Source: Elusimicrobia bacterium GWA2_62_23
GTDB lineage: Bacteria > Elusimicrobiota > Elusimicrobia > Elusimicrobiales > UBA9959
Direction: 5' to 3'
DNA: 64,000 nucleotides
NCBI GenBank assembly: GCA_001799635.1
Contig: MGTV01000008.1
Span: 879-64,878, forward strand
Shown here piece by piece: positions 13,132 through 64,000 of the stretch (the stretch's first letter is position 1; every line of letters begins with the position of its first letter). A model generated the notes under the pieces. It was not told the origin of the DNA and did no database searches. It saw only the letters and a program-made list of their open reading frames with translations. The translations under genes were made by a program, and so were the position numbers.

Positions 13132-13142
13132 GGCGCCGCGCG

Positions 13143-43601: not shown

Positions 43602-43636
43602 TTCCGCAGACGTGCTTTAACGCGTGAGGATAATTT

Positions 43637-44182
43637 ATGAAGACCCTGTGTTCAGCTCTCTTTTTCGCGGCGATCTTTGCCGCCGTACCGGCTGCGGCCG
43701 CCGATACCGAGGATACCCTGCGGGCGCAACTCAAATCGGCCTCTACGCCTGAGGCCAGGCGCGCTATCATGGACCAGATAAAGCAGGCCCGCGCGGTTTC
43801 CCGTCCCGCCGCCGCGCCCGCGGCCCAGGCGGACCCCGCCGCCCGCCGGGCCAGGATGGAAGAATCTCTGAAGGACGATCCCGAGCGCCTGGCCGAATTC
43901 CGCCTGCAAGAGTCCCTGCGCGCCGCCAGGACCCCGGAAGACCGCGCGGCCATACGCAAGCAATTGGAAGAGAAACGCGCCGCCCGCGCCGCGAAGGCGG
44001 AGGCCGCGTTGACCCCGGAGCAGAAAGCCGTGCGCGCCCAAAGAGCGGCCCAGGCCGCCGCCATGCGCGCCGAAATGCAGCCGCTCAGGGAGCGCCTGCG
44101 CGCCGCCGCTACGGAAGCGGAGCGCGATTCCGCCAGAGAGGCCCTGCGCGCGGTGCAGGAAAAGTACCGTGCCAAGCCTTGA
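43637..44182 (+). CDS. Secreted Ala/Arg/Glu-rich helical protein, possibly Spy/CpxP-like (LTxxQ)
   Basis: GAGGA Shine-Dalgarno, signal peptide, highly helical low-complexity sequence, one LTPEQ motif. Confidence 0.45.
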   Translation: MKTLCSALFFAAIFAAVPAAAADTEDTLRAQLKSASTPEARRAIMDQIKQARAVSRPAAAPAAQADPAARRARMEESLKDDPERLAEFRLQESLRAARTPEDRAAIRKQLEEKRAARAAKAEAALTPEQKAVRAQRAAQAAAMRAEMQPLRERLRAAATEAERDSAREALRAVQEKYRAKP

Positions 44183-44213
44183 GGTGACTTAAAGTTTTAT
44201 TGGAGATAAACGG

Positions 44214-47200: not shown

Positions 47201-47705
47201 AACCGTTTCTGGCTATGTCGGCATTAGCACAGCGGTCCCGCAGGCGGCCCTGCATGTGGTGGGCGGAGGGGCTTCCTATGCCAACGCGCTTATAGTGGAT
47301 ACCCAGAAGGCCGACGGCGGGACCATAATCCTCGGCAATGATAGTGATTCCGGGGACCAGGTCCGTGTGGGCGTTAACGGGTACCTGCGGTCCCAGGCAG
47401 GTCGTTTTGGTATAGATACCACCGGTAATCCGCTTACCTTCGAGATATCCGAGTCGGAAAAAATGCGCGTAGCCGCCAGCGGGGCGGTGGGTATTGGAAC
47501 TAACAACCCTCTGGCGGGACTGGAAGTGAGGTCTTACTCTGACGGCAATTACACGGCCGTGGTGTCCACCTCAGCCACCGCGGGGATATACAGCGTAGCC
47601 GTGAGTTCGACCGGCATCACGCACGTGAACAATTTGGTGATCGAGAATCGCACTTCGGACCCTGCTGCCCCGGTTACGGGCCAGATCTGGTTCCGGGTGG
47701 ATTAG
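44214..47705 (+). CDS. Large secreted fibre/adhesin-like protein (1163 aa) with neck modules, YadA-head-like repeats and a ~15-aa GxxNTFxGxxAGYSN repeat array
   Basis: Signal peptide. Neck modules near 44400, 45940, 46940 and 47230. Three DxLGxHxAT motifs. About 13 tandem 15-aa repeats at about 46240-46860. Confidence 0.75.
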   Translation: MNLVTCARSRVPGRRHVFFWALALVLAALPALNAAEFETVDKLTANGFSLLKSSAEVRGLLGVSTGVPYAALDVVSTGTASNIYAQIWRNGGGVEVASMTSTGVLYATFPPGAGGDHLGNHTATADLNMTAHSVLSVASVTMVGTGLQLGTDLTSSANGLFISTAGQVFTLGLGNGAALPNARGIGAVDLQTKRTTSVQVASGTYAVISGGYANTASGDAAAVAGGWGNTASGLRSFAAGNGNTASGAYASVTGGTDSTASGSHAVIGGGNTNEASGDHSAALGGLWSTASGNYSAVGAGYQNTASGSYSSVLGGNTNTAAGGSSTVFGGEENVAQGFGSLAGGMGYNYAGGDDSIVLSAYSTTTAYGSAIVGGEDHFASGDHSAVVGGYDNTVSGDQAFIGGGDTIDVRGEYSGNVGGRYNIVHGSNSFVGGGSNNQAFGFYTAILGGDFNWAYANESAVVGGNANGAYGEASAILGGVNNRTYGFGSIVLGGDRNHAAGDYSLAAGRTSSSTANGSFTWADSQGGTTVRTINNIADRTLFKNRGGFMITGSTNTYMTGGGDRGVLVTGDGLLGISTGVPYAALDVVSSATASNVYAQIWRDGGGVIVASMTSQGTLFTTAVGKGDNLGNHTATQNLNMVAFGVNTSSAVTAASYQIAGSTVLAILGGDGSIAVGPNSSAFSTGNYNVFVGSGAGHSNTSGRRNTFVGAAAGYSNDNDQINTFIGSESGYSNNAGWGNVFVGDTAGYSNTSGSENTIMGGYMTGYENTSGWGNVFLGNYSGQSNTEGDKNTFIGYGSGEFNVTGEGNVAVGYSAGDANEAGSFNAILGHEAGYSVESSSNTLMGYRSGYNLWTGGRNILLGYQAGYNLESGAGNIVIGYDRNASAENASNELNIGDVLFGKLDDRTIGISTRVPQAALDIVSTGTAANVYAQIWRNGSGVVVASMTSEGKLFADGSGLTGVNAATGGTGGDNLGTHIATQTLNMSGFDIVGVATITVSGYVGISTAVPQAALHVVGGGASYANALIVDTQKADGGTIILGNDSDSGDQVRVGVNGYLRSQAGRFGIDTTGNPLTFEISESEKMRVAASGAVGIGTNNPLAGLEVRSYSDGNYTAVVSTSATAGIYSVAVSSTGITHVNNLVIENRTSDPAAPVTGQIWFRVD

Positions 47706-47773: not shown

Positions 47774-50700
47774 ATGTACGTCATGAACGAGTGCAGATAT
47801 AACAACCGTTGCTCTCGCTCCCGTATCCGTATGGGAGCGGTTTTTGCCGCTTTGTTGTTATCGTCTGTTCTTTTTGCGCCTGAGGGGGTTCGCGCGCAGG
47901 CCGTTCCGGACGGTATAGTTTCCTCCAAGTCCACCTCAACCTGCCATAATACCAATTCTTTTAATTTCTATTCGTCCTTCTCTGGAGCTTCCTATTACCG
48001 CTATGTCTGGGATACCAGCCCTACCCATACCTGGACGCACGCGGAAACCCAGTGGAGTTCCGGAGTCCTTAACCTTACGGCCGCCTCCGAAGGAACCTGG
48101 TATTTTCACGCTATGGCGTATGACAGCGGGGGGGTGCCGGGAACGGATATTCACCTGCCTCTGATCTACGATATCACTCTCCCTGTCGTTTCAGGTTTTT
48201 CCAGCCTGAATTCATCCGGCGGGACCGTGACCGAAAGCCAGTACAATAACCTGGCTTCCGGGGTTACCGTACAGATCACCGTGCAGGACGCTCTGGCGGG
48301 CCTGATAGTGACCACCGCTGCGGTACCTGGCGACATGCTCGGATTTCCCGGGGGGGTCTCCGTGGCGTATTCCAACGACGCCGGGCGTAACTGGGCCTAC
48401 GACACTGTAGTTTTAAGTTCTGATGGCGCTAAAACTTCGATCTTCTGTCTGGCAGTCTACAACGGCAGACTTTACGCCGGGCAGACTGGCAGCACTGGGG
48501 ACGGTGACGTGCTGGTATATGATGGCTCTTCCTGGAGCGTCAGCTACAACGGGTCCCAGACCGGTATCTACTCCCTGGCGGCCTATAACGGCAAACTTTA
48601 CGCTGGGCAAGGTCAGGGCACCGGGCTTGGAGATATTTACGTTTTCGACGGTGCCTCCTGGTCCCTTAATTACGACACTTCACGCGATATCACAATATCC
48701 ATGGCCGTTTATAACGGCAAACTCTACGCAGGCTGGGGCGACGACCTTGGAGAGGGTGACATCTATGCCTATGACGGCACTTCCTGGGTTTTTAGTTACA
48801 ACGGCGGCCAAGAGTATATACGTGCCCTGGCGGTATACAATAACAAACTTTACGCCGGGCAGGGCAGCGGCACTGGAGACGGCGACGTGCTGTCATACAA
48901 CGGGACTTCCTGGGGAACCAGTTATAATGGGGCACAGGAATACATAACATCGCTTTCGGTCTACAACGGCAAACTCTACGCCGCCCAGGGCAGCAGTACC
49001 GGAGACGGTGACGTATTTGTTTATGACGGTTCCTCGTGGACAACCAGTTATAACGGTTCGCAGGAAGTTGCCTACTTGGGGGTCTACGGCGGCAAATTGT
49101 ACGCGGGTGAGGGCACGGGCACTGGTGACGGCGATATGCTGGCTTTCGACGGGACCCGCTGGGGCCGCGTCGCGAATACGGATTATTCCTATGTTTACGC
49201 CCTCACGGGTTATGATGGGAGTCTCTTCACAGCCATGGGGAGCGGCACTCCCATGGGAGATATTTTGCGTTCGGCCCCTGCCGCCCCGGCAACGCTGACC
49301 GGTACCGACGGCACCACGGCGGCGCAGACCCTGTCGGCGGTGGTAAGTCTTTCCGCGTCCACCAATACGCAGACCTGCGCCGGGGCGGAGCCCTGCGGGG
49401 CCACCAACCAGGTGATCTTTACCGCCATGGACAGGGCCGGGAACGTGCGCCGCGCCGGGCCCTACGCGGTGCTGCTTTCCGTTACTCCTTCCGCGGCCGA
49501 GGTGGTTCCGGGGAAATCCACCGGGGTCTGGTACCATACCAGTTCCTTTACTTTTTCCTCGTCTTTCAAGGACGCGGCGTATTACCGGTACGCCTGGGAT
49601 ACTTCCGCCACCCATTCCTGGACTTATTCGGAACCGCAGTGGACGGCCTGGGTACTGTCCCCGGCCGGAGTTTCAGGGGCCGCCGGAAACTACCTGCACC
49701 TGCTGCCGTACAACATCGAGGGGACTTACGGGACCTCCCGGGATATAGGGCCGTTCTATCTGGACGCCTCTTCCCCGGTGGCGTCCGGCTTTGTCAGTTA
49801 CAGCTCTACCGCCGGCGTAATGGGTGAGGCCCAGGTGAATGGCCTGCTTTCCGGGGTCACCGTGCAGGTGACGGTTCAGGACATTCTCTCCGGCCTGTTG
49901 CTCAGCACCGCGGCGGTGCCGGCGGACCTGGCGGCCGGGCCCGGCGGTTTCGGGATGATGTATTCACAGGATTCCGGAACCACCTGGACGGTGAACGTGG
50001 CTTCCGTGTCCTTTGACGGTGCTGAAGAATATATCTTCGCGCTGGCGGCCTACAACGGGAAACTTTACGCGGGTCAGGGGAACGGGACCGGCAACGGGGA
50101 CGTTTATGTCTACGACGGAGTTTCCTGGAGCCTCAGCTATGACGGCGCCCAGGAAGCCATCTATTCCCTCGCCGTCTATAACGGCAAATTATACGCCGGA
50201 CAGGGATACAGTACCGGTGACGGGGATGTGCTGGTTTTTGACGGGTCGACCTGGGGCGTTTCTTTGGATAACCCTTTTGTTTCTTATGTTTACGCCATGA
50301 CCGAGTTCCAAGGTAAGCTATACGCCGCCTTCAGTAGTCCCGGATCTGTCTATTCTTTTGACGGGTCCTCCTGGACCAAGGTCTACGACTACAATACCAC
50401 GCTCGCCGACATGGCGGTGTACGACGGTAAACTGTACCTGGCCGCCATGTATTATATCCTGGTTTTCGACGGCAACTATTGGGGGATAACCTATGACGCC
50501 GGCGCTACGTATGTAAAGAAATTGGCCGTTTACAACAACAGGCTTTACGCCGGCCTTGGGGGTAGTACCGGTACCGGCGACGTGCTGGTGTACGACGGCA
50601 AGTCCTGGGCGATGAGTTTTGACGGTACCCAGGAATACATTGTTTCTCTCTTTCCTCACGACGGCAGGCTTTACGCCGGCCAGGGGAGCGGCACTGGGGA

Positions 50701-53700
50701 CGGCCGTATTTATGTTCTCAACGGCGCGACATGGACCCTGGCTTATTCCGGCCTGCAGGAGTATATCTATTCCATGGCGGCCTATAACGGAAAGCTTTAT
50801 GCCGGACAGGCCTACAGCTCCGGGGACGGCGACGTGATAGAATTTGCCCCCGCTTCCTCGGTGACCCTTAGCGGGAGCGACGGTTCCGTGGTTCCGCAAA
50901 CCCTTGCAGGCACGGCTAATTTTAAACTGTCTGCCACGGCGGACACCTGCTCCGGGACCTTCCCTTGTTCTGCCACTAACCAGGTCATTTTTACCGCTAC
51001 TGACAAGGCCGGCAACGTGCGGACGGCCGGTCCTTATGCCGTGCTGGTAGCGGGGCCGCCAAATTCTTCGGACGTTGACGCGCTCAAATCCACCGGCGTA
51101 TGGCATTCTTCCGGCACGTTCCCCTTCGTTTCCGGTTTTTCCGCCGCGGCTTATTACCGTTACGTCTGGGATAACTCGGTCTCCCATGACTGGACGGGCG
51201 GTGAAACGCAGTGGCCTTCGGGCGTTTTGTCGCTCGACGCGGCCGCGGAAGGAGCGGACTGGTATTTCCACGCCGTGCCGTACGACATCCTGGGCAGTTC
51301 CGGCCCCGACCGGCACATAGGGCCGCTCCGCTTCGACGCAACGCCGCCGGCCGTTTCCGCTTTCGCTTCTTTCAGTTCTACCGGCGGCTTGCTGGGGGAA
51401 TCTCAGTTCAACGATCTCCTGGCGGGGGTTACGGTGCAGCTGGTGGTACAGGACCTCCTGAGCGGCCTGGCGGTCTCGACCTTGGCGCCGGTTACCGAAC
51501 TTCCGGGAGGGCTGCAAGCCTTTTCCGTGGCTTATTCCAGCGACGCCGGACATGCCTGGAACACGCTCTCAACCGCTACCAGTTATAACGCTTCCCAGGA
51601 GGCGTTTTACTCGCTCGCGGTTTACGGTCAGAAGCTTTATGCCGGGCAGGCAAGCGAGGCCGGGGACGGGGACGTTTTCTCCTTCGACGGAACTTCCTGG
51701 GTGAAGACGTTCGACGGCACGCAGGAAACTATTTCCTGCCTCGCGGTTTACCAGGGGAAACTTTATGCCGGCCAGGGAACCGGCACCGGGGACGGGGACG
51801 TCTACGTTTATGACGGGATTTCCTGGCAGTTGAGTTATGACGGGCCGCGCAACATTATTTCCTCCCTCGCGGTTTACAAGGATAAACTCTACGCCGGCCA
51901 GGGCAGCAGTTCCGGTTACGGGGACGTGCTGGTGTTCGACGGCAGTTCCTGGAGCGTTTCCTATGACGGGGCGCAGGAATATATTTTTTCCCTCGCCGTG
52001 CACCAGGGGAGGCTTTATGCCGGACAGGGGAATGGCGCCGGGGACGGGGATGTGCTCGTTTACGACGGCATCAATTGGACGGTCAGTTATGACGGCGCCC
52101 AGGAGATTATAAACACCCTGGCCGTTTACGATGGCAAACTGTATGCCGGGCAGGGATACAATGCCGGGGATGGCGACGTGCTGGCCTTCGACGGGACCGC
52201 CTGGGGCGTTTCTTATGACGGGACCCAAGAAGGTATTTATTCACTGCAGCAGCACGGCGGTAAACTTTACGCCGGCCAGGGCAACGGTTCCGGAGACGGA
52301 GATCTCCTGGTCTATGACGGCGCCTCCTGGACCCTTGCCTGGAACGGGCCGCAGGAGGGCCTCTATTCCCTGGCCAGTTACAAGGGGCGCCTTTACTCCG
52401 GGCAGGGCATTTCTTCTGGCGACGGAGATGTCCTGGAGTTCTCTCCTTTCCCCGCCGTCCTGTCGGGCGCGGATGGGACCATTGCTCTGCAAACGGCCTC
52501 CTCCACGGTGCGCCTGGCCCTTTCTTCCAATACCCAGACCTGCGGCGGCGTAGAGCCTTGCGGAGCCACCAACCAGGTCCGTTTCTATTTTGCCGACCTG
52601 GCGGGAAATGTCACCCGGGCCGGTCCGTTTGCCGTCGTCACCCGGATCCCGCCTTCCGCCCAGAACGTAGTTTCCCTGAGATCCACGGGGACATGGTACA
52701 ACGCCGCGGCGGGTGATTTTACGTTCACTTCCGACTTTCAACAGGCGGTCTATTACCGTTACGCCTGGGACGCCTCTCCCACACGCGTCTGGGCTCATGA
52801 CGAAACACAGTGGCTTTCAGGAAATCTTGCCCTGGCGGGGGCGGACGGGCAGGACCGGTACCTCCACCTCCTGCCCCATGACCTGTCTGATTCCTCCGGT
52901 ACCCCTGTGGACCTCGGGCCTTTCCGGCTGGACAGCACCGCCCCATCCGTTTCCGGCTACAACTGGGTGAGTTCCACCGGCGGCCTCATGTCGGAAAGCC
53001 AGTTCCTTACCCTCGCGACAGGCGCGACTTTCCAGGTGTTGGCCCAGGACTCGGCTTCCGGCCTCATGGTCTCGTCCTATATTCCCACGGTGGGTTTTGA
53101 GGGCGGCAGCCTGCCCTCGGGCTTTTCTTCCGGCGGCAATCTGCCCTGGACGGTATCTTCTCTTATCCCCTACGCCGGCTCTTACGCGGTCCGTTCGGGG
53201 AATATCGGCAATTCCCAGTCTTCCTGGCTGCGCTTCCAGGGTGAATTACAGGCCGGCTTCCTGAATTTTTGGTTCAAATTGAGTTCCCAGAGTTCCTCCG
53301 ATTACCTCCGGTTCTATATAGACGGGGAGCAGCGGAGTGCGTGGAGCGGTGTTCTTGCCTGGAGCGAAGTGAGTTACGAAGTGGCGGCTGGGCAGCATAT
53401 CCTGGAATGGGTCTACGTCAAGGACGCTTCCTCTTATTCCGGTGATGACGAGGCCTGGGTCGACCAGATAACTTTTCCTGGCACTTACATGGCCGCTGAA
53501 TATTCCCTGGACGCCGGGACAACCTGGGCGGAAGTCCGGGATTTTTCCGCCGGCGCTATCCCGGGCCTGGCTTTGACCGGAGTCAATGGTACTGTGGCCC
53601 AGCAGACGGCATCGCTCTTTTCTCCCGCGTTCAAGGTTTCCACCAACACCCAGACCTGCGGCGGCGTAGAGCCTTGCGGGGCTACCAACCAGATACGTTT

Positions 53701-56700
53701 TGGCATCCCGGACCGCGCGGGGAACACAACCTATGCCGGGCCCTATGCCGTTCTGTTAACTCTGGCCCCCGAGGCGTCCGATGTGGCAGTTTCTAAGTCC
53801 ACCGGGGTATGGCACAATACCAGTTCTTTTACCTTCACTTCCGCTTTCCCTACGGCCGTCTATTACCGCTACGCGCTTACCAATTCTCCGGCTCATGTCT
53901 GGACGTTCTCCGAAACGCAGTGGCTGTCCGGAGCCCTTACGCTGGAAATCCCCGCCGGCTCTTCCGATTGGTATTTCCACGCCCTTCCTTACGATATCCT
54001 GAACGGTTCCGGCACTCCGGCTTCGCTTGGTCCGTTCCGCGTGGAAACGGCCTCTCCGGCTCTTTCAGGTTTTTACGTCTACAGTTCTACCGGCGGCATT
54101 TTTCCGGAGGGGGAATTCGTGGACCTTGCCGCCGGGGTTACGGCCCAGATCCTGGTGCAGGATGTTCTTTCCGGCCTGCTGGTTTCCACTTCCGTACCGC
54201 CTGCCGGCGGAACTTACGGCCCCGGCGGTTTTGGCGTCCTGTTCAGCAAGGACGCCGGGCAGACCTGGAGTTCGGATTTGCCGGCGACCACCTTTAACGG
54301 AGCGCAGGAGTATGTTTTTTCCCTGGCCGCCTACGGCGGTAAACTTTATGCCGGCCAGGGCATAGGCACTGGGGACGGCGACGTGCTGGTCTTCGACGGA
54401 AGTTCGTGGCAGATAAGTTATAACGGCACACAGGAGGTTATCCGCGCCCTTGTGGTCTACGACGGCAAACTTTACGCCGGACAGGGCAGCGGTACAGGTG
54501 ACGGAGATGTGCTGGTATACGACGGCAATTCCTGGGCGGTGAGCCATGACGGCTCCCGTCCCTCCGTCCTTTCCCTCTCCGTATATGCCGGCCGGCTTTA
54601 CGCAGGCCTGGGGGGATCCACCGGGGACGGGGACGTGATGGTGTTCGACGGCAGCTCCTGGACGTTGAGCTACGCTGGCGCCCAGGAGGGCATTTACTGT
54701 CTGGCCGTTTATGACGGAAAACTTTACGCCGGCCAGGGTTACAGTAATACGGACGGGGATATTTACGTTTTTGACGGCGTCTCCTGGACTAAAAGTTTCG
54801 AAGGATCTTCATACTTTATTCGCTCGCTGGCGGTTTATAACGGGAAACTTTATGCCGGCCAGGAGGGGTCGTCTACTACTGGCGGCGATATTTATTCCTT
54901 CGACGGGAAGTCCTGGATTAACGTCTTCGAAGGTGTCGGCTACGGCGTACAATCCCTGGCCGTTCATGATGGCAAACTTTATGCCGGCTTGGGGAAAGAA
55001 TCCTACTCTACGGTCGCGGATATATATGTGTTTGACGGGGTCACCTGGCGGCAAATGCATGACGGACCTGACGGGTTTGGTTATTTCGCGCTGGCCCCTT
55101 ACAATGGGCGCCTCTACGCGGGGAGCGGCTGGAGCGGGGATATCCTTGTGTTCTCCCCGGCGGCGGTCTCCTCGCTGACCGGGACGGACGGCACGGCTTC
55201 CCAGCAGACGCTTTCAACCCGTCTCGACCTGCGGACCTCCACTAATACCCAGACCTGCGGCGGCATTTCTCCGTGCGGGGCCACTAACCAGGTAAAATTC
55301 TTTGCCATGGACCTGGCCGGCAACGTCGCCATGGGCGGGCCCTACGCGTTGCTGATCTCCAGCACTCCCTCCGCCGACGACGCCTGGGTTTCCGTCTCCA
55401 CGGGGGGGTGGTACACCGCCGTCCCGCTTTCGGTCTTCTCCCCGTTCTCACGGGCGGCCTATTTCCGCTACAGCCTGGACGCGGCCGCCTCCCGGGAATG
55501 GACCTTTGCCGAACCCGTGTGGTCCTCCGGGACACTTTCGCTGGGGATCCCCGCCGATGGTACGGACTGGCACGTCCACCTGCTGCCTTATGACCTGCTG
55601 GACAGTTCCGGCGCCGCCCGCTCTATAGGTCCGTTCAGGTATGACGCCCAGCCGCCGGTCTTCTCGGCTTTTGCGTCCTACAGCTCCACCGGGGGGCTCC
55701 TGGGTGAGGCGCAGTTCAATGACCTGGTCTCGGGAGTAACCATCCAGATCTCCGTACAGGACGTCCTCTCCGGTCTGCTGGTCAGTTCGGCCGGAGTTCA
55801 GGGCTGGGGACCCTTTGCTCCCGGAGGTTTCCGCGCCGAATACTCCGCCGATTCCGGTGCCACCTGGCAAGAGGATACCCTTTCTGTTTCTTTCGACGGT
55901 GTGTTCTATGAAATAACCTGCTTTGCGGTTTATAACGGCAAACTTTACGCCGGGCAGGGGCGATACAGTGGGGCGGGGGATATTTACGCTTTTGACGGGG
56001 TCTCCTGGACTTTGGTTTATAACGGTTCCTATGACGAGGTTTCCTCTCTGGCCGTGTTCGAGGGAAAACTTTATGCCGGTATGGGGAACGCTTCCTCCTC
56101 CGGGGATATTTACGTGTATGATGGCGCTACCTGGGTGCTTTCTTACAACGGCCAGGCGAGTTCCGTGCACGCGCTCTCCGTTTACGGAGGCCGGCTTTAC
56201 GCCGCTCTTGGCGGCTACGCGGGGGTGGGAGACATCCTGGTGCATGACGGTGCCGCCTGGAGCGTATCCTATGACGGCGATTTGACCTACGCTTATGCCC
56301 TGGCTGTTTACGAAGGCCGCCTTTACGCGGGTTTCGGCGGCAGCACCGGTGATGGTGACATAATGGCCTATGACGGCCATTCCTGGACGCTCAGTTACGA
56401 CGGTTCCCAGGAAGGCTTCTTCTGTCTTGCGGTGTACGACGGAAAACTTTACGCCGGTCAGGGCAACGGCAGCGGCGACGATGATACTTACGTCTATGAC
56501 GGCAGTTCCTGGAGCCTTAGCCGCGCCGGCAGCGGCTATATAGTGTATTCGCTGGCCGTTTCGGGCGGGCGTCTTTTCTCGGGCGGAGGTTTTCCTCCTA
56601 ACTACGGGGGCACCGCTCCTTCCGACATCTTCATCTATGACGGGTCCGCCTGGACCCAGCTTTACGACGGAACCGGCCTCTATGACACGGTTTCCGCCCT

Positions 56701-59700
56701 TGCCGCCTACGGCGGCCGCCTCTACGCCGGTATGGGTGACGACTCCGGGAAAGGCGACATCCTGGCCTTTTCTCCGGTTGCGGTAGCGTCCATGACCGGA
56801 ACGGACGCTTCCACTTCCCAGGAACTGCTGCGGCTTTCCCTGGATCTGCGGGCTTCCGTCAACTCGGTCACCTGCGGCGGCGTGGCGCCCTGTGCGGCCA
56901 CCAACCAGGTCCGCTTCAAGGCCTCGGACATGGCAGGCAATGTCGTCCATAGCGGTCCCTACGCCGTCATAACTTCCCCGGAGCCTGACGCCTCAGAAGT
57001 GACCGCTTCCCTTACTACCGGGACATGGAATACGGCCAGTTCCAGCGCGGTGTTCTCTTCCTCTTTCCTGAAGGCCGCGTATTACCGTTATGTCTGGGAC
57101 ACCTCCGCGTCCCACGAGTGGACTTATGCCGAGTCCGCCTGGACGTCTGCGGCCCATTCTCTTTACCTGACGCCCGTGCCCGGCGCGGCGAATTGGCTTC
57201 ACTTGCTTCCCTATAACGTTTCTGACAGTTCGGGCTCCCCGCGGGACATCGGCCCTTTCAACTTCGACGGCGATCTTCCGGCCGCGTCCTCTTTCGCTTT
57301 TAGAAGTTCTACCGGAGGCCTGCTCTCTGAACCTCAGTTCTCCGATTTGTTGTCAGGAGTTACCGTGCAGCTCTCCTGGCAGGACCCGTCTTCCGGGCTT
57401 GCCGTAAGCACATACACCCTGTCCGGCCTGCGATATTCGAATGACGCCGGCGCCACCTGGGTCCCTTACCAGTGGGAACAAATACGCACCGGGCTGGATA
57501 CTCACGTACACGCGATGGCGGTTCATCAAGGGAAGCTGTATGTGGGCACCGGGTCTGGGACAGGGCGGGTATACTCTTACGACGGTTACGCCTGGGCACT
57601 GGTCTATGACGGCCCGGACTCCTACATGAATGCCCTGGCCTCTTACAATGGTCTCCTCTTCGCCGGCGGAGACTCCGGCAATGTGATGGTCTATGACGGC
57701 AATTCCTGGAAACTTTCTTTCGACAGTCCAGCGGAAACGGTCAAATCATTCCAGGTCTATAACGGCAAACTTTACGTTGGTACGGGTTATAACACCGGCG
57801 CTGTTTACGCTTATGACGGCGCAAGCTGGGTGTTCAAATTTTCCTACGCCGACGAGGTGAGTACCATGGCCGTTTATGACGGCAAGCTTTACGCTGGCTT
57901 CGGCAACGACTCCGGCGAAGGCGATATCTACGCTTATGACGGCTCCTCCTGGGTTCTTTCGTACAACGGCTCCGGTTCCAGCGTAATGTCCCTCGCCGCG
58001 TACGCGGGGAAACTTTACGCAGCAATGATCACTACCTGTGAGATCTACCAATTTGACGGTACTGTCTGGTCCCTTAATTTCACCGGCGGCGGGAACTTTT
58101 TCCCAAGCCTGGTGGAACATGACGGCAAACTTTATGCCGGTCTGGGATACGGTTCCGGGGAGGGAGATGTCTACGAATTCAACGGCAGTTCCTGGAGCAG
58201 CTCTTTTAACAGTTCCGAAGACACGGTTGGCGCCATGGCCGTGTACCGCGGTGAAATTTACGTGGGGACCGGATATCATGGCCATATCTACAAGTTGCGG
58301 TCCTATTCTGTCCCTGAGGTTACCGGGGTGTCCGGCACTACGGAGCAGCAGGTCATGTCCGGCCTTGTTTCTCTGTCGGCCTCCACCAACACCGAAACCT
58401 GCGGCGGCGCCGCCCCCTGCGGGGCCACCAACCAGGTTAAATTCTACGCGGCCGACACCGCGGGGAATCTTAGTTTCGCGGGGCCGTACGCGGTGCTGGC
58501 CGCCCCGGAGGCTTCGGCCGCGGACGCAGCCGCGAATTTCTCTACCGGGGCCTGGACCAGCCGCAGCACTTTTTCTTTCAACTCTTCTTTCATCCAGGCG
58601 GCCTATTACAGGTATGTCTGGGACGCTTCGCCCGCCAGGGAGTGGGTTTATACCGAGCCGCAGTGGCTCCCTTCTTCCGCAACTCTTTCTTTTCAGGCCG
58701 CGGAAGGGGCCAACTACCTGCATCTCCTGCCTTACAACGTTTTGGGTTCTTCCGGGGCTCCCCGGGACCTCGGGCCTTTCCTTTTTGAAGCCGCTTCTCC
58801 CACCGCGGCGGCTTTCTTTACCATAAGTTCTACCGGTGGCGCCCTCAGCGAAGCCCAGTTCAATGCCCTTGTGGAGGGCGTTACCGCGCAGCTTACGGTG
58901 CGCGACCTGCTCAGCGGCCTCAGCGTTTCTACCTGGGCCGCCGTATATGAGGGTTTTGAGACCGGCACCCTGCCGCTGGGTTGGGAAACCGGCGGGAATC
59001 TGCCCTGGTATACGCAATCAGGGGTTCAGTTCGCAGGTGGCCACGCCGCCAGGGCCGGGCTTTTGGCGCCTTCGCAGGTTTCCTGGCTGCAGGCGACGGT
59101 GCAGAATTTCGTCCCGGGACAGTTTTCTTTCAGACGTTATGGACAGGCCGGCGATTCCTGGTTCAGGTTCTGGATAGACGGGGCCTCCAAGGGCTACTGG
59201 TTTGCGGAAACCTCCGGCTGGGTGCAGGAAAGTTACGCGGTTTCCGCCGGGTCCCACACCTTGCTTTGGCAGTATCTTACTAATTCCAATCCCGGCCTCA
59301 ATCTCCTTCTCCTGGACGATATCACTTTCCTGCGGCGACCTTCCTGGGCGGAGTACTCACTGGACGCCGGGGTTACCTGGAAACAGGCCGGGACCGTTTC
59401 CCTTACCGGCGCGGAAGGCAGTACGGAAGACCAGACCCTGAGCGCCCTGTTCACGCTGCGCGCTTCTTCCAATACCGAAACCTGCGGCGGGTCCTCTTCT
59501 TGCGGTGCCACCAACCAGGTCCGATTCTATGTTTCCGACCAGGCCGGGAACGTGAGGCAGGCGGGGCCTTTCGCCGTTATAACCTCGCCTGTTCCGCACG
59601 CTTTGGACGTGCAGTCAGGCAGGTCCACGGGCACCTGGTACAGCGTGCCCAAATTCACGTTCCAGTCTGAGTTCTTTGGCGCGGCCTATTACCGTTACGT

Positions 59701-62700
59701 CTGGGACACCTCCGACTCTTACGAGTGGACGTACGCCGAACCGCAGTGGGGAGCGGGGAACCTTTCACTCTCCGCGGTCACCTCCGGCGCCGGCTACTAC
59801 CTGCACCTGCTGCCTTACAATGTTTCCGACAGCAGCGGGGCACCCCGGCACCTGGGGCCGTTCTTCTTCGAGGGAGACATCCCTTCCGGGTCTTCTTTCG
59901 CCACCGTCAGTTCTACCGGAGGACTTCTTTCCGAATCCCAACCCACCGCGCTTTCCGCCGGGGTCACGGTGCAGTTCACCTTGCAGGATGTTCTCTCAGG
60001 GCTGTTGGTCTCGGAGGGGGGCGCTCCTTCGGAATATCCTTTCCAGGCCGGAGGTTTCAGGATTTCATACTCCCGGGACGCGGGCGCTACCTGGTCCTCC
60101 GAAAGTACGGTAGTTTCTCATTACAGTTCGGCTATTGGCGTGCATTGCCTCACGGTTCATGACGGTAAACTCTACGCGGGGCATGGGGAGGACGACGAAC
60201 TCGGGCAGGGCGACATTTTTGTGTATGACGGTTCCTCCTGGTCGTTGAGTTATGAAGGCCAGGAGGTCAGCATCCGCGCCCTGGCATCCTACGGCGGCAA
60301 ACTATACGCCGCACAGTACGGCTGGGACGAGGGAGATGGGGATATCCTGGTGTTCGACGGTGGGAGCTGGTCCGTCAGCTATGACGCCGTGGTCTACGGG
60401 GGTATCGAGTCCCTGTGGGCTTTCGGCGGGAAATTATACGCCGGTACGCTAAGTTGGGATGTCCTGGGGGATATCCTGGTCTTTGACGGCGGTTCCTGGA
60501 AACTGGACTTCGCCACGGGCAAGGACGCGGTGGCCGCTTTCGCTACCTACAACGGGGAACTCTTTGCCGGGGTCGGCTACGATGACGCCAACGGGAACGG
60601 GGACATTTATGTGCGCCGAGGCAATTCCTGGGAGGGTTCCTTCGACGGCAATGAGATTTCCATCCGGGACTTCGCCGTTTACGGCGGAAAACTTTACGCC
60701 GCGCAGTACGGCTGGGATACCGGAGACGCCGTGCTTCTGGTCTATGACGGGGAGCAATGGACCCAGCATTCCACTTTTGACGTCTATGTCGGCGTAGCGA
60801 GTTTGTCCGTGTATAACGGGCGGCTTTTCGCGGGTATCGGGGACTTTTCCTGGGATCCGGACGGGGAAGTTTACTCATACGACGGCGAGGTCTGGACCAG
60901 GATCTATGACGGCGCTAAGATGGCCATAAAGGACCTGGCAGTGTATGACGGCTCCTTGTACGGCGCCGAGTACGGCTATTCGCCGGGAGAGGCTTCCGTG
61001 CTCAGACTTTCCGACCCGGTGCGGGCCTCCATTACCGGCTCCGACGGCACTACCGCCGCGCAAACGTTTTCCGCGGTTCTGGACTTGTCGCCCTCGGCGG
61101 ACGGGGCCGTCTGCGCGGGTGTTGCTCCCTGCTCCGCCACCAACCAGGTAAAGTTCACCGCCACCGACAGGGCTGGCAACGTGGGGATCTACGGGCCGTA
61201 CGCCGTTATAGCCGCGTCGGCGGCCAGCGCCGCGGACGCGGTAGCGGAACGTTCCACCGGCGCCTGGCACAATACCCCCGGTTTCTCGTTCCGCTCCGGT
61301 TTTGGCGGCGCGCTCTACTACCGGTACGCCTGGGATACTTCCCCTTCCCGCTCCTGGACCGGCACCGAGCCGCAATGGACGTCCACTTCCCCTGCTCTTC
61401 ACGTGAGGGCCGCCGCCGAGGGCGCCGATCATTACCTCCACCTGCTGCCGTATAACTACCTGGACGGGGAAGGCCCCCCCAGGGACATCGGCCCGTTCCG
61501 GTTTGAAATGGCCGCGCCCGCGCCCTCAGGTTTTTCCAGCGTAAGTTCCACCGGGGGCTACATGTCCGAATCCCAGGAGAACGACCTGGCCGCCCAGGTG
61601 CAGGTCCGTCTTTCCCTGCAGGATATCCTCAGCGGGCTTTCGGTACTGCCCGACGCCCCGCATGGCCCGGCCGGGTTCCCGGCCGGGGGGTTCTCCGTGC
61701 GCTACTCTAACGACGCCGGCGCCACCTGGTCCGCGGGGGTGGCCTCCCTTTCCTTCGCCGGCCCGACCGAGGATATCACCGCCCTGGCCGTTTATAACGG
61801 CAAACTTTACGCCGGACAGGGTTACGACGACATGGACGATGAAGGCGACGTTTACGTGTACGACGGCAACGCCTGGGCGCTGAGCCTTAACGGGTATAAA
61901 GTGGCCATACGCTGCCTGGCCGTCTATGACGGCAAACTTTACGCGGGGCAGTACGGCTGGGAGTACGGCGACGGGCGCGTGTACGTTTTTGACGGTAATA
62001 CCTGGGAGATCTCCCTGGCCCCTTCGCTTGCGATCTCCGCGCAGGACCTGGCCGTGTATAACGGCAAGCTCTACGCTGGCCTTTACGGCTGGTGGGACGA
62101 TGACGAAGGGGATGTTTATGTTTTCGACGGTAAGACCTGGCGGATCAGTTTTGACGGCATCACGGACGGTATCGCCGCCTTGGCCGTATACGACGGCAAG
62201 CTTTACGCGGGCGAAGGCTATTGGGGCGACACAGGCGAGGGAGATGTGCGGGTTTTCGACGGTAATTCCTGGAAACTTTCTTTTGACGGCGGCGCCACCA
62301 CTATAAATTCCCTGGCTGTTTATGACGGCAGGCTTTTCGCCGGTCAGACCGGAGCCGGCGGGGACGGGGATGTCTATGTCTACGACGGTTCTGCCTGGGT
62401 GCTTTCCCTGGATGGGGAGACCGAAGGCTTCAGTTCGCTGTGCGTTCATAACGGCCGGCTCTATGCCGGTGCCGGTTACTGGGGATCGGAAGGCGACGGG
62501 GATATGTACGCTTATGACGGTGCCTCCTGGAGACTTGAATTCGAGGGGCCGGCCGCGGCGATACGCGCCATGGCGTCTTACGGCGGCGCTCTTTATTACG
62601 GCGAAACAGGCTATGACCCCGGCGACGGCCGCGTAATGCGCCTCTTGGATAGCCCCTCGGCCGCCCTGACGGGCACGGAGGGCACGGCCTCTCCCCAGAC

Positions 62701-64000
62701 GCTTTCGGCTTCTTTGGCGTTGAAAGTTTCCACTAACACCGAGACTTGCGGAGGAGTCTCTCCCTGCGGCGCTACCAACCAGGTGGTCTTCGCTTTTACC
62801 GACACGGCCGGTAACTCCGCTAACGCCGGCCCCTACGCCATTATTTCCGTCCCGCCGCTGAGCGCGGACGACGTTACCCCTTTGCGTTCCACCGGGGTCT
62901 GGTACCATACTTCCACTTTCGGCTTTACCTCCGCTCAGGTCAACGCCGCTTATTATCGCTATGCCTGGATAGACTCACCTTCTTACGCTTGGACCTATTC
63001 CGAGCCGGTCTGGTCCACTCCGGATATGGATTTGAGCGCTTTGTCTTCCGCCGCTACCTGGTATCTTCACCTCCTGCCCTATAATTCCGGCGGTACTTTT
63101 GGCGCTTCACGCGTCATAGGGCCTTTCCTTTATGACGGCGTGGCGCCGTCCCCGTCCTTCTTCCATACCTATAACTCCACCGGCGGGGTAATAGCCGAGC
63201 CCGGCTTTAATAACCTTACCTCCGCGGTTACCGCCCAGCTCTCCGTCTGGGAAGGCCTCAGCGGGCTGTCGTTGCGCTTCTATGAACCCGGACAGGACGT
63301 GTTTTCCGCCGCTGCCAGGAGCTTTGAGGAGGGGACTCTGCCGGCGCAGATGGTTACCGGGGGGAACGCTCCCTGGTATGTCGTATCCGGCACCGCGGCG
63401 GCCGGAACCTATTCGGCCCGCAGCGGCGACATAACGGAAGGCGGCCAATCCTACATGTACTTCTCCGCGGATACAACGGAGGGGGAGATCTTCTATTACC
63501 GGCTTATTGATACCGAGAGCCGCTACGATAACCTGCGTTTCAGTATAGACGGCGTAGAGGTTTCCTCCCGTTCCGGCGGCTTGCCTTGGGCGAAAGAGAG
63601 TTTTCCCGTCAGCGCAGGGCGGCATACCTTCATGTGGGTTTACGTTAAAGACCTCTGGGATACCGAGCTGTCGGACACGGTATGGGTGGACCAGATAGAA
63701 CTCCCTTCAACGGCCACCGTGCAGGTGCAGTATTCCACCAGTGCCGGCAACAACTGGCTGCCGGTGCAATCCACGGTGCCGGCCGCTTCGCCCTACCTGT
63801 CGCTTACCGGCTTCGACGGCACCTTGTCCACCCAGACCTTCAAGGTCTATAACATGCAATTGGCGCCTTCCACCAGCGCCGTGGTCTGCGCGGGGGCCTC
63901 CCCCTGCGACGCCACCAACCAGGTGCGGTTCTTCCTTGGCGACCACGCGGGAAATTTGATGACGGCCGGTCCTTATTCGGTGCTGGTCGACACCGCCCCC
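47774..64000 (+). CDS. Giant secreted modular repeat protein, 3' end beyond the window (at least ~5,400 codons). Not present in the supplied ORF track
   Basis: The frame with codon starts congruent to 2 mod 3 is open from ATG 47774/47783/47831 to base 64000. I hand-translated 47783-50370 and 51542-56000 and found no stop. The track lists no + ORF in this frame after 47705, as expected for an ORF that never closes. The N-terminus MGAVFAALLLSSVLFAPEGVRAQA is a signal peptide. Conserved protein modules recur 11 times. Confidence 0.85.
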   Translation, partial: MYVMNECRYNNRCSRSRIRMGAVFAALLLSSVLFAPEGVRAQAVPDGIVSSKSTSTCHNTNSFNFYSSFSGASYYRYVWDTSPTHTWTHAETQWSSGVLNLTAASEGTWYFHAMAYDSGGVPGTDIHLPLIYDITLPVVSGFSSLNSSGGTVTESQYNNLASGVTVQITVQDALAGLIVTTAAVPGDMLGFPGGVSVAYSNDAGRNWAYDTVVLSSDGAKTSIFCLAVYNGRLYAGQTGSTGDGDVLVYDGSSWSVSYNGSQTGIYSLAAYNGKLYAGQGQGTGLGDIYVFDGASWSLNYDTSRDITISMAVYNGKLYAGWGDDLGEGDIYAYDGTSWVFSYNGGQEYIRALAVYNNKLYAGQGSGTGDGDVLSYNGTSWGTSYNGAQEYITSLSVYNGKLYAAQGSSTGDGDVFVYDGSSWTTSYNGSQEVAYLGVYGGKLYAGEGTGTGDGDMLAFDGTRWGRVANTDYSYVYALTGYDGSLFTAMGSGTPMGDILRSAPAAPATLTGTDGTTAAQTLSAVVSLSASTNTQTCAGAEPCGATNQVIFTAMDRAGNVRRAGPYAVLLSVTPSAAEVVPGKSTGVWYHTSSFTFSSSFKDAAYYRYAWDTSATHSWTYSEPQWTAWVLSPAGVSGAAGNYLHLLPYNIEGTYGTSRDIGPFYLDASSPVASGFVSYSSTAGVMGEAQVNGLLSGVTVQVTVQDILSGLLLSTAAVPADLAAGPGGFGMMYSQDSGTTWTVNVASVSFDGAEEYIFALAAYNGKLYAGQGNGTGNGDVYVYDGVSWSLSYDGAQEAIYSLAVYNGKLYAGQGYSTGDGDVLVFDGSTWGVSLDNPFVSYVYAMTEFQGKLYAAFSSPGSVYSFDGSSWTKVYDYNTTLADMAVYDGKLYLAAMYYILVFDGNYWGITYDAGATYVKKLAVYNNRLYAGLGGSTGTGDVLVYDGKSWAMSFDGTQEYIVSLFPHDGRLYAGQGSGTGDGRIYVLNGATWTLAYSGLQEYIYSMAAYNGKLYAGQAYSSGDGDVIEFAPASSVTLSGSDGSVVPQTLAGTANFKLSATADTCSGTFPCSATNQVIFTATDKAGNVRTAGPYAVLVAGPPNSSDVDALKSTGVWHSSGTFPFVSGFSAAAYYRYVWDNSVSHDWTGGETQWPSGVLSLDAAAEGADWYFHAVPYDILGSSGPDRHIGPLRFDATPPAVSAFASFSSTGGLLGESQFNDLLAGVTVQLVVQDLLSGLAVSTLAPVTELPGGLQAFSVAYSSDAGHAWNTLSTATSYNASQEAFYSLAVYGQKLYAGQASEAGDGDVFSFDGTSWVKTFDGTQETISCLAVYQGKLYAGQGTGTGDGDVYVYDGISWQLSYDGPRNIISSLAVYKDKLYAGQGSSSGYGDVLVFDGSSWSVSYDGAQEYIFSLAVHQGRLYAGQGNGAGDGDVLVYDGINWTVSYDGAQEIINTLAVYDGKLYAGQGYNAGDGDVLAFDGTAWGVSYDGTQEGIYSLQQHGGKLYAGQGNGSGDGDLLVYDGASWTLAWNGPQEGLYSLASYKGRLYSGQGISSGDGDVLEFSPFPAVLSGADGTIALQTASSTVRLALSSNTQTCGGVEPCGATNQVRFYFADLAGNVTRAGPFAVVTRIPPSAQNVVSLRSTGTWYNAAAGDFTFTSDFQQAVYYRYAWDASPTRVWAHDETQWLSGNLALAGADGQDRYLHLLPHDLSDSSGTPVDLGPFRLDSTAPSVSGYNWVSSTGGLMSESQFLTLATGATFQVLAQDSASGLMVSSYIPTVGFEGGSLPSGFSSGGNLPWTVSSLIPYAGSYAVRSGNIGNSQSSWLRFQGELQAGFLNFWFKLSSQSSSDYLRFYIDGEQRSAWSGVLAWSEVSYEVAAGQHILEWVYVKDASSYSGDDEAWVDQITFPGTYMAAEYSLDAGTTWAEVRDFSAGAIPGLALTGVNGTVAQQTASLFSPAFKVSTNTQTCGGVEPCGATNQIRFGIPDRAGNTTYAGPYAVLLTLAPEASDVAVSKSTGVWHNTSSFTFTSAFPTAVYYRYALTNSPAHVWTFSETQWLSGALTLEIPAGSSDWYFHALPYDILNGSGTPASLGPFRVETASPALSGFYVYSSTGGIFPEGEFVDLAAGVTAQILVQDVLSGLLVSTSVPPAGGTYGPGGFGVLFSKDAGQTWSSDLPATTFNGAQEYVFSLAAYGGKLYAGQGIGTGDGDVLVFDGSSWQISYNGTQEVIRALVVYDGKLYAGQGSGTGDGDVLVYDGNSWAVSHDGSRPSVLSLSVYAGRLYAGLGGSTGDGDVMVFDGSSWTLSYAGAQEGIYCLAVYDGKLYAGQGYSNTDGDIYVFDGVSWTKSFEGSSYFIRSLAVYNGKLYAGQEGSSTTGGDIYSFDGKSWINVFEGVGYGVQSLAVHDGKLYAGLGKESYSTVADIYVFDGVTWRQMHDGPDGFGYFALAPYNGRLYAGSGWSGDILVFSPAAVSSLTGTDGTASQQTLSTRLDLRTSTNTQTCGGISPCGATNQVKFFAMDLAGNVAMGGPYALLISSTPSADDAWVSVSTGGWYTAVPLSVFSPFSRAAYFRYSLDAAASREWTFAEPVWSSGTLSLGIPADGTDWHVHLLPYDLLDSSGAARSIGPFRYDAQPPVFSAFASYSSTGGLLGEAQFNDLVSGVTIQISVQDVLSGLLVSSAGVQGWGPFAPGGFRAEYSADSGATWQEDTLSVSFDGVFYEITCFAVYNGKLYAGQGRYSGAGDIYAFDGVSWTLVYNGSYDEVSSLAVFEGKLYAGMGNASSSGDIYVYDGATWVLSYNGQASSVHALSVYGGRLYAALGGYAGVGDILVHDGAAWSVSYDGDLTYAYALAVYEGRLYAGFGGSTGDGDIMAYDGHSWTLSYDGSQEGFFCLAVYDGKLYAGQGNGSGDDDTYVYDGSSWSLSRAGSGYIVYSLAVSGGRLFSGGGFPPNYGGTAPSDIFIYDGSAWTQLYDGTGLYDTVSALAAYGGRLYAGMGDDSGKGDILAFSPVAVASMTGTDASTSQELLRLSLDLRASVNSVTCGGVAPCAATNQVRFKASDMAGNVVHSGPYAVITSPEPDASEVTASLTTGTWNTASSSAVFSSSFLKAAYYRYVWDTSASHEWTYAESAWTSAAHSLYLTPVPGAANWLHLLPYNVSDSSGSPRDIGPFNFDGDLPAASSFAFRSSTGGLLSEPQFSDLLSGVTVQLSWQDPSSGLAVSTYTLSGLRYSNDAGATWVPYQWEQIRTGLDTHVHAMAVHQGKLYVGTGSGTGRVYSYDGYAWALVYDGPDSYMNALASYNGLLFAGGDSGNVMVYDGNSWKLSFDSPAETVKSFQVYNGKLYVGTGYNTGAVYAYDGASWVFKFSYADEVSTMAVYDGKLYAGFGNDSGEGDIYAYDGSSWVLSYNGSGSSVMSLAAYAGKLYAAMITTCEIYQFDGTVWSLNFTGGGNFFPSLVEHDGKLYAGLGYGSGEGDVYEFNGSSWSSSFNSSEDTVGAMAVYRGEIYVGTGYHGHIYKLRSYSVPEVTGVSGTTEQQVMSGLVSLSASTNTETCGGAAPCGATNQVKFYAADTAGNLSFAGPYAVLAAPEASAADAAANFSTGAWTSRSTFSFNSSFIQAAYYRYVWDASPAREWVYTEPQWLPSSATLSFQAAEGANYLHLLPYNVLGSSGAPRDLGPFLFEAASPTAAAFFTISSTGGALSEAQFNALVEGVTAQLTVRDLLSGLSVSTWAAVYEGFETGTLPLGWETGGNLPWYTQSGVQFAGGHAARAGLLAPSQVSWLQATVQNFVPGQFSFRRYGQAGDSWFRFWIDGASKGYWFAETSGWVQESYAVSAGSHTLLWQYLTNSNPGLNLLLLDDITFLRRPSWAEYSLDAGVTWKQAGTVSLTGAEGSTEDQTLSALFTLRASSNTETCGGSSSCGATNQVRFYVSDQAGNVRQAGPFAVITSPVPHALDVQSGRSTGTWYSVPKFTFQSEFFGAAYYRYVWDTSDSYEWTYAEPQWGAGNLSLSAVTSGAGYYLHLLPYNVSDSSGAPRHLGPFFFEGDIPSGSSFATVSSTGGLLSESQPTALSAGVTVQFTLQDVLSGLLVSEGGAPSEYPFQAGGFRISYSRDAGATWSSESTVVSHYSSAIGVHCLTVHDGKLYAGHGEDDELGQGDIFVYDGSSWSLSYEGQEVSIRALASYGGKLYAAQYGWDEGDGDILVFDGGSWSVSYDAVVYGGIESLWAFGGKLYAGTLSWDVLGDILVFDGGSWKLDFATGKDAVAAFATYNGELFAGVGYDDANGNGDIYVRRGNSWEGSFDGNEISIRDFAVYGGKLYAAQYGWDTGDAVLLVYDGEQWTQHSTFDVYVGVASLSVYNGRLFAGIGDFSWDPDGEVYSYDGEVWTRIYDGAKMAIKDLAVYDGSLYGAEYGYSPGEASVLRLSDPVRASITGSDGTTAAQTFSAVLDLSPSADGAVCAGVAPCSATNQVKFTATDRAGNVGIYGPYAVIAASAASAADAVAERSTGAWHNTPGFSFRSGFGGALYYRYAWDTSPSRSWTGTEPQWTSTSPALHVRAAAEGADHYLHLLPYNYLDGEGPPRDIGPFRFEMAAPAPSGFSSVSSTGGYMSESQENDLAAQVQVRLSLQDILSGLSVLPDAPHGPAGFPAGGFSVRYSNDAGATWSAGVASLSFAGPTEDITALAVYNGKLYAGQGYDDMDDEGDVYVYDGNAWALSLNGYKVAIRCLAVYDGKLYAGQYGWEYGDGRVYVFDGNTWEISLAPSLAISAQDLAVYNGKLYAGLYGWWDDDEGDVYVFDGKTWRISFDGITDGIAALAVYDGKLYAGEGYWGDTGEGDVRVFDGNSWKLSFDGGATTINSLAVYDGRLFAGQTGAGGDGDVYVYDGSAWVLSLDGETEGFSSLCVHNGRLYAGAGYWGSEGDGDMYAYDGASWRLEFEGPAAAIRAMASYGGALYYGETGYDPGDGRVMRLLDSPSAALTGTEGTASPQTLSASLALKVSTNTETCGGVSPCGATNQVVFAFTDTAGNSANAGPYAIISVPPLSADDVTPLRSTGVWYHTSTFGFTSAQVNAAYYRYAWIDSPSYAWTYSEPVWSTPDMDLSALSSAATWYLHLLPYNSGGTFGASRVIGPFLYDGVAPSPSFFHTYNSTGGVIAEPGFNNLTSAVTAQLSVWEGLSGLSLRFYEPGQDVFSAAARSFEEGTLPAQMVTGGNAPWYVVSGTAAAGTYSARSGDITEGGQSYMYFSADTTEGEIFYYRLIDTESRYDNLRFSIDGVEVSSRSGGLPWAKESFPVSAGRHTFMWVYVKDLWDTELSDTVWVDQIELPSTATVQVQYSTSAGNNWLPVQSTVPAASPYLSLTGFDGTLSTQTFKVYNMQLAPSTSAVVCAGASPCDATNQVRFFLGDHAGNLMTAGPYSVLVDTAP
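48440..49279 (+). repeat. Propeller-like array 1: seven ~41-aa (~123-bp) blades, consensus xxSLAVYNGKLYAGQGxGTGDGDVxVYDGSSWxxSYDGxQE
   Basis: Seven consecutive blades read in the translation. Confidence 0.75.
50030..50851 (+). repeat. Propeller-like array 2 (seven blades)
   Basis: Same blade consensus. The central blades are more degenerate. Confidence 0.7.
51602..52447 (+). repeat. Propeller-like array 3 (seven blades)
   Basis: Seven clean blades read in the translation. Confidence 0.75.
53090..53482 (+). repeat. Jelly-roll-like module J1 (paralogues at 58946-59332 and 63317-63709)
   Basis: VGFEGGSLPSGFSSGGNLPWTV...SYAVRSGNIGNSQSSWLRF...LRFYIDGEQRSAW...GQHILEWVYVKD...AWVDQITFPG. The same pattern (FExGxLPxGW..GGNxPW ... 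W(V/L)DxIxxP) occurs in all three copies. Confidence 0.7.
54311..55159 (+). repeat. Propeller-like array 4 (seven blades)
   Basis: Blade consensus as above. Confidence 0.7.
55907..56776 (+). repeat. Propeller-like array 5 (seven blades)
   Basis: Blade consensus as above. Confidence 0.7.
57503..58303 (+). repeat. Propeller-like array 6 (about seven blades, more divergent)
   Basis: Blade consensus as above. Confidence 0.65.
58946..59332 (+). repeat. Jelly-roll-like module J2
   Basis: YEGFETGTLPLGWETGGNLPWYTQ...WFRFWIDGASKGYW...GSHTLLWQYLTN...LLLDDITFL. Confidence 0.7.
60134..61015 (+). repeat. Propeller-like array 7 (about seven blades, variant with YGWDxGDG loops)
   Basis: Blade consensus as above. 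Confidence 0.65.
61772..62660 (+). repeat. Propeller-like array 8 (seven blades)
   Basis: Blade consensus as above. Confidence 0.7.
63317..63709 (+). repeat. Jelly-roll-like module J3
   Basis: RSFEEGTLPAQMVTGGNAPWYVV...LRFSIDGVEVSSRS...GRHTFMWVYVKD...VWVDQIELPS. Confidence 0.7.

Follow-up and report, generated by a model that had tools for sequence, protein, structure and literature searches.

A stretch of 64,000 nucleotides from Elusimicrobia bacterium GWA2_62_23 (contig MGTV01000008.1, positions 879 to 64,878; hereafter the window) carries a giant gene for a secreted protein of 11 repeated super-modules, eight of which hold a predicted beta-propeller and three a smaller insert domain of ~133 residues. 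We find that the insert is a member of a widespread extracellular domain family for which neither Pfam nor NCBIfam has a model, that it is predicted to fold as a beta-sandwich, and that it is one of several payloads carried by a repeated scaffold; in these statements of identity and architecture, taken jointly, we have high confidence. The explanation that we favour for the whole, with clearly less assurance but on the better side of even, is that the beta-sandwich is a payload serving as a ligand-binding head, perhaps glycan-specific, on an adhesin-like fibre.

Profile-defined limits placed insert 1 at 53081..53482 (residues 1770-1903, super-module 4), insert 2 at 58940..59335 (residues 3723-3854, super-module 8) and insert 3 at 63308..63709 (residues 5179-5312, super-module 11), all on the plus strand. 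Counted from the C-terminus, these occupy positions Ic3, Ic2 and Ic1, respectively, insert 3 adjoining the C-terminal tail. Insert 1, a putative galactose-binding-domain-like beta-sandwich, was identified by profile (E 6e-55), structural model and Foldseek, and the other two by profile and alignment, insert 2 being the most diverged copy. The three are paralogues by BLASTP (35-41% pairwise identity, E 1e-18 to 1e-32), and their end-to-end alignment contained 33 invariant columns, including FE.G.LP, GGN.PW, RF.IDG, AG.H..W.Y and D.I. An initial annotation of the window, made from the DNA letters, had proposed three paralogous inserts with a shared motif; every motif that it gave lies among these columns, and its coordinates agreed with the profile limits to within 6-9 nt (5' edges) and 0-3 nt (3' edges). 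A profile search of all six frames of the window found no fourth copy. Insert 2 has lost the acidic SSE..YD motif of the wider domain family, and insert 1 has it in altered form. The notion that the likeness arose by chance or composition in a repetitive, G+C-rich open reading frame (ORF) draws only on the biased composition of the giant protein (glycine, serine and alanine make up 35% of residues), and it is effectively ruled out by E values down to 1e-32, thousands of homologues, a confident fold prediction and positional orthologues in other genomes.

An AlphaFold2 (AF2) model of the insert domain, built from an 11-sequence alignment (A2), was all-beta with at least 8 strands, the first and last of them at opposite chain ends, with a mean predicted local distance difference test score (pLDDT) of 86.5 and a predicted template modelling score (pTM) of 0.84. 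With this model, Foldseek retrieved 112 PDB matches at E<=1e-3, and each of the 50 listed was a beta-sandwich domain. The top match was the C-terminal domain of VesC (6bqm; E 5.8e-7, root mean square deviation 1.8 A over 98 columns, 19% identity), alongside carbohydrate-binding modules (CBM61, CBM6, CBM35, CBM29 and CBM22), MAM domains (5l73, 8a28), the galactose-binding domain of Elapor1 and the K3 cleaved-adhesin domain of the gingipain Kgp; TMq values were 0.62-0.69 for 5l73, 3m1h and 9vql, and up to 0.69 for Elapor1. On this model the insert is predicted to be a two-sheet beta-sandwich of the galactose-binding-domain-like/CBM/MAM structural class, as the initial annotation had guessed for the fold.

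At the sequence level the signal was fainter. A profile from the three inserts alone retrieved only noise from PDB sequences, while a 62-member family profile (A3) matched the VesC C-terminal domain (E 0.002, 20.4-bit domain) over the SSE..D.L.FY.D core and the CBM22 of Xyn10C (E 0.019) via the N-terminal FExG..GW segment. Taken with the strong fold match, the VesC result makes a distant kinship of the insert family with the VesC C-terminal domain plausible. A CUB-like reading, suggested by the YDxLxFxIDG motif, produced only two isolated sub-threshold matches (CUB, E 0.0093 in one protein; CUB_M02D8_5_3rd, E 0.074), and no CUB domain appeared among the 50 matches listed by Foldseek.

Each of these neighbours resembles the insert in part. 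The best structural match, residues 381-511 of the Vibrio cholerae serine protease VesC (PDB 6BQM), has been described as a concave CBM-like beta-sandwich with MAM, reelin and CBM29 as nearest folds (PMC7771236); it is appended once, to the C-terminus of a protease, whereas the insert is a payload in a repeated scaffold, and the sequence link is marginal. With the beta-jelly-roll CBM families 4/9, 6, 22, 29, 35 and 61 the insert shares its fold class, the N-terminal FExG..GW and a C-terminal strand pattern of hydrophobic-D-D/Q-I. Sequence matches to CBM22, CBM_4_9 and CBM_35_2 were weak, however, and none of the 62 family members reached a Pfam CBM threshold; TM-scores against the model were 0.4-0.6 at 12-21% identity, and sugar-binding residues could not be placed in the insert. 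The MAM, cleaved-adhesin, choice-of-anchor J and ELAPOR1 domains are likewise structural neighbours whose sequence matches all fell below curated cut-offs (Cleaved_Adhesin, E 0.48), and MAM and cleaved-adhesin domains exceed the insert in length by ~40 residues. The likeness to carbohydrate-binding or choice-of-anchor domains that had been proposed for the insert therefore holds for the fold class, but the curated CBM, MAM and choice-of-anchor thresholds are not reached.

Scans of the three inserts against Pfam gave nothing significant (E 0.14-0.48, for CBM_35_2, Cleaved_Adhesin and a StcE beta-sandwich), and scans against NCBIfam gave no match, choice-of-anchor J (NF038128) included. A word-indexed search of 5.8 billion proteins recovered eight small hypothetical proteins sharing motifs with the insert, and a family profile search that read all 1.84 billion cluster representatives (clusters at 50% identity) matched 16,743 proteins at E<=1e-3, of which 3,737 reached E<=1e-30. 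Many run to thousands of residues, a single protein may hold up to 36 domain copies, and among the best 150 of the 16,743 matches the copies mostly stand in direct tandem (period 120-160 residues) or alternate with a ~90-residue domain (period 220-240 residues). None of 62 diverse members reached any Pfam or NCBIfam cut-off; choice_anch_J (NF038128) appeared below threshold in five of them (best E 0.0021) and GBD_ELAPOR1-like in one (E 0.046). Members bearing names, from Planctomycetota, Magnetomoraceae and others, are all called 'hypothetical protein', and family proteins are annotated as featureless in this way because neither Pfam nor NCBIfam detects the domain. Domain curation thus gains a lead here: the beta-sandwich is compact and modelled with confidence, and thousands of large extracellular proteins contain it, often as arrays of 10-36 copies. 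Within this family the Elusimicrobia-type protein is unusual in using the domain sparingly and within a larger repeat.

That larger repeat is a ~230-residue scaffold of two beta domains, repeated 11 times and carrying one payload domain per repeat. The super-modules follow the order PPP-I-PPP-I-PP-I and are delimited by the anchors YYRY, SSTGG, the Asp-box, PCGATNQ and GPYAV; the eight P units are 509-569 residues long and the three I units (4, 8 and 11), each holding one insert copy, 361-380 residues. A blade profile detected exactly seven ~42-residue repeats in every one of the eight P units and none in the I units, and Pfam Beta-prop_KIB1-4 matched P units at 32.9 bits (cut-off 27.4); from these repeats the P payload is predicted to be a seven-bladed Kelch-like beta-propeller. 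Anchor motifs and module alignment placed super-module 4 (372 residues) at 52646..53761 and super-module 8 (361 residues) at 58505..59587, and super-module 11 (380 residues; 62852..63991) is the final unit before an FN3 domain and C-terminal tail that lie beyond the window, all on the plus strand. In super-module 4, beta domain A (STGxW..YYRYxWD) is followed by a host N-fragment (SSTGG..VQDxxSGL), the insert, the Asp-box and a host C-fragment with the signature LTGxDGT..PCGATNQVxF..DxAGN..GPYAV. Blade repeats put the propeller of super-module 3 at 51605..52486 and the others at 48440-49318, 50033-50890, 54314-55207, 55913-56815, 57506-58351, 60140-61051 and 61775-62686, again on the plus strand.

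Module alignment also located the entry point of each payload. P units run from ..VQDxLSGLxVS through a short loop to GGFxVxYSxDAGxTW, then the propeller and then LTGxDGT..PCGATNQVxF..DxAGN..GPYAV; I units run from ..QDxxSGLxVS into the insert, then to xEYSxDAGxTW, a short linker and LTGxxGT... The entry point of the insert precedes that of the propeller by one hairpin, and the Asp-box lies 3' of the insert and 5' of the propeller. The earlier description of the inserts as sitting exactly where other modules carry a propeller is right in that they occur only in units without one, but the two entry points are adjacent and different, on either side of the Asp-box. This hairpin reads YSLDAGTTW right after insert 1 (53501..53527, plus strand; equivalents at 59354-59380 and 63731-63757). 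Its pattern, (Y/F)Sx(D/S)(A/S)GxxW, occurs once in each of the 11 units, propeller-free ones included, the canonical Asp-box being SxDxGxTW, and in a PDB search with a profile of payload-deleted host sequences it matched sialidase Asp-boxes (E 4e-5).

The host segments flanking the payload comprise ~45 residues before it (about three strands) and ~65 after it (about four), and Big_3_2, CHB_HEX_C and OmpL47, all single Ig-like (immunoglobulin-like) domains, matched them weakly and in the expected order. The motif order D..SGL / YxxDxGxxW / DxAGN resembles that of such single domains. As each flank is too short for a domain and the motif order looks Ig-like, we infer a single Ig-like host domain that holds the two kinds of payload in adjacent loops. 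Three checks did not bring out such a split domain. A second AF2 model, of host plus insert (alignment A6), had a pLDDT of 72 and fell below 50 in the host N-fragment. Spliced host sequences, from which the payload had been deleted, matched no full-length Ig family, only Asp-boxes (sialidases) and, weakly, CHB_HEX_C and Big_3_2 when they were compared with Pfam and their profile with the PDB. No payload-free host copy was found in any of the fetched loci: apparent full-span matches in the metagenome loci L015 and L016 ran into a different propeller, and a match in L011 covered the Asp-box and C-fragment only. The same three results would also be compatible with an in-line arrangement, each payload flanked by two small domains that are separate from one another, with the Asp-box hairpin as a mobile linker joining either neighbour. 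We think this arrangement possible but unlikely, because neither the N- nor the C-fragment is long enough to form a beta-sandwich on its own and the weak matches to Big_3_2, CHB_HEX_C and OmpL47 fall in the right order. A protein-index search with the spliced-host alignment gave no matches, but the same index also missed the giant protein and its homologues.

Homologues were read from one genome locus and 15 metagenome loci, the closest among species-representative genomes being encoded by the metagenome-assembled genome Elusimicrobia bacterium GWB2_63_16 (~43% identical). Whether homologous giant genes keep the mixture of I and P units had been raised by the initial annotation, and all seven related genes compared do so. 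L001 and L005/L006 have the order (P)n-I-PP-I-tail; L002, L008 and L010 (Ga0209212_1001317) form one gene of >11,000 codons, with ~13 P units and then I-PPP-I-PP-I-tail; L003/L004 is a complete gene of 2,164 codons (signal peptide-PPP-I-tail); and L007/L009 has P7-I-tail. Runs of 6, 7 and ~13 P units occur, and N-terminal runs can be all-P, so that the replacement of the propeller in every third or fourth unit describes the window gene but not its homologues. What had been called a regular alternation is instead a conserved C-terminal pattern, ..I-PPP-I-PP-I-tail: the unit adjoining the FN3 tail is I-type in every homologue with a complete end.

A neighbour-joining tree grouped the I-domains by position counted from the C-terminus. 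Identity across genomes was 53-67% for Ic1, 40-44% for Ic2 and 45-50% for Ic3, compared with 30-45% for most pairs between positions (up to ~50% with the single L003 copy), and position-specific loop sequences were conserved, KDLWDSELSD of Ic1 being one example. In L001, the homologue from the Elusimicrobia metagenome-assembled genome, the P units (ORF residues 249-2354) were 59-65% identical to one another and only 44-56% identical to those of the window, and this closer likeness within a genome than across genomes suggests recent lineage-specific amplification or homogenization. The I units are thus old paralogues, individually maintained at set positions, and the P run is the expandable part.

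The payloads are also of at least three types, rather than the two first described. A 490-residue unit of the L002 gene (L002:3707-5176), which has neither blades nor insert, contains DUF2341 (PF10102, E 4.4e-23) and ~140 further residues; DUF2341 is placed at the insert's entry point and is followed by an Asp-box-like YSVNAGGGW and the usual C-fragment. The distant relatives L015:536-16108 and L016:1-13896 keep the host N-fragment and Asp-box, after which comes a different propeller (blades ..LMYSPDGATW), in much longer modules of 800-1,500 residues. Together, the DUF2341 unit and the different propeller of L015/L016 indicate that the scaffold accepts several unrelated globular domains. More speculatively, the scaffold might be a general payload-display platform, with the loops flanking the Asp-box as insertion hot-spots for at least three unrelated domains, I units fixed in position by their own ligands to give a multi-specific adhesion fibre, and the beta-sandwich as a large new family deserving its own entry; we put this forward tentatively, as a doubtful extension. 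Were it true, an uncultivated groundwater bacterium would possess a multi-specific adhesion fibre.

For function, we propose that the payload would project sideways from the second scaffold domain, which would be an Ig-like 'split' domain of the sort seen in RTX adhesins, and that the beta-sandwich insert would serve as a head that binds a ligand, a glycan being the most plausible candidate. Divergence in specificity among the three insert copies would give the fibre binding sites of several kinds from one end to the other. That the insert is a ligand-binding head seems to us an even call; that its ligand is a glycan is a guess we would expect to fail somewhat more readily than to hold. Several points weigh against a binding head, and a glycan-binding one in particular. 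The MAM relatives bind proteins, and the names of family members give no label beyond 'hypothetical protein'. Since SSE..YD is missing from insert 2 and changed in insert 1, the three copies do not all retain a common metal or sugar site. For the VesC C-terminal domain, carbohydrate binding was a suggestion by the authors of the structure (PMC7771236).

The positions of the I units would also suit a role at the bacterium's own surface, in which they act on the cell envelope or on neighbouring fibres, through MAM-like homophilic contacts or its own envelope glycans, and hold the fibre in place by its C-terminal part, with the propellers turned outward. An I-type unit stands beside the FN3 and ~85-residue tail wherever the end is complete, Ic1 there is the most conserved copy, I units cluster C-terminally with all-P runs at the N-terminus, and MAM domains are among the structural neighbours. 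Yet comparison of the C-terminal tail with sorting and anchor families gave no match, and arrays of up to 36 copies elsewhere are unlike an anchor; we regard this role as improbable. Slightly less probable again, in our view, is that the insert is a passive, ligand-free spacer, a compact propeller substitute that alters fibre spacing, stiffness or kinking at set points. It would account for the lack of identified binding-site residues, for the loss of family motifs in insert 2 and for the domain being mostly a bead in long tandem arrays, like extender domains, but not readily for loop sequences conserved position by position across genomes, and three different globular payloads on one scaffold fit exchangeable functional heads better.

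The proposed binding-head design has precedents. In the RTX adhesins MpIBP, FrhA and AhLap, ligand-binding domains, CBMs included, interrupt an Ig-like domain on a long fibre (PMC12077191, PMC10865825), and both they and the giant protein exchange globular heads between homologues on a long fibre, the nesting in an Ig-like domain being putative for the giant protein. The giant protein differs in having an N-terminal Sec signal instead of a C-terminal type I signal, and a payload in every repeat unit rather than at the tip only. It is not itself an RTX adhesin, a candidate ruled out by the Sec leader and by the count of RTX nonapeptides, which was zero for the window protein and likewise for its L001 homologue, whose C-terminus is complete. 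To call the alternation of binding domains along one protein an unusual design was therefore an overstatement, as adhesins are known to display binding domains on long Ig-like stalks (PMC12077191); the giant protein is a variant of that principle and not new in kind. Lectin-like heads on Ig-like stalks being already known, no general principle is altered. Few genes of uncultivated bacteria are nonetheless as poorly understood as those for giant surface proteins, and this gene offers a clean natural case of payload exchange on a constant scaffold, in which positional orthologues could guide head-binding experiments.

The gene itself (47774..64000, plus strand) is 3'-truncated by the window, which contains 5,409 of its 5,586 codons. 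Its frame is open from 47543 through the window end, with an ATG at 47774 and further possible in-frame starts at 47783 and 47831. Two groundwater metagenome contigs (ENA ERZ978281 and ERZ909580), identified by an exact protein match to the upstream gene, carry the same gene with an identical start and a 5,586-residue product, the last 177 residues of which fall outside the window. Inspection of the N-terminal leader (47774..47902, plus strand) revealed a hydrophobic signal-peptide core, MGAVFAALLLSSVLFAPEGVRAQA, and the giant protein is predicted to be Sec-exported via this signal peptide.

Every homologue with a complete 3' end closes with a 206-residue tail of FN3 (E 1.2e-5) and a conserved ~85-residue C-terminal domain, and as 5380 + 206 = 5586 residues, the window gene ends with the same tail. 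In L001 the FN3 and ~85-residue end (..LKIYNHGKVYGIILLDTDSPCEISRMRVYTNNGLKAVKKY) lie at 12604-13143, and the window counterpart would lie just past the end, at ~63992-64531. The ~85-residue domain had no Pfam or NCBIfam family match, sorting and anchor families included; from its place in the sequence it could be a sorting or anchoring domain. At the other end of the >11,000-residue homologue, the N-terminal ~1,000 residues (L008:2580-6600) hold two repeated ~330-residue units (..WNxLExYL..NGxxV..YFDEVRVS) before the first super-module, and these look like concanavalin/LamG-type domains.

Long minus-strand ORFs overlap the giant gene (47774-64000), for example at 55448-56950 (500 residues) and 61526-62908 (460 residues), and given the 62% G+C they are most likely artefacts and not genes. 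Upstream lie six consecutive plus-strand ORFs of 362, 684, 381, 1419, 181 and 1163 residues (34885-47705), for which no convincing family match was found beyond faint ones to DUF2477 and 2CSK_N; the order of these six ORFs and the giant gene is conserved on two groundwater contigs.

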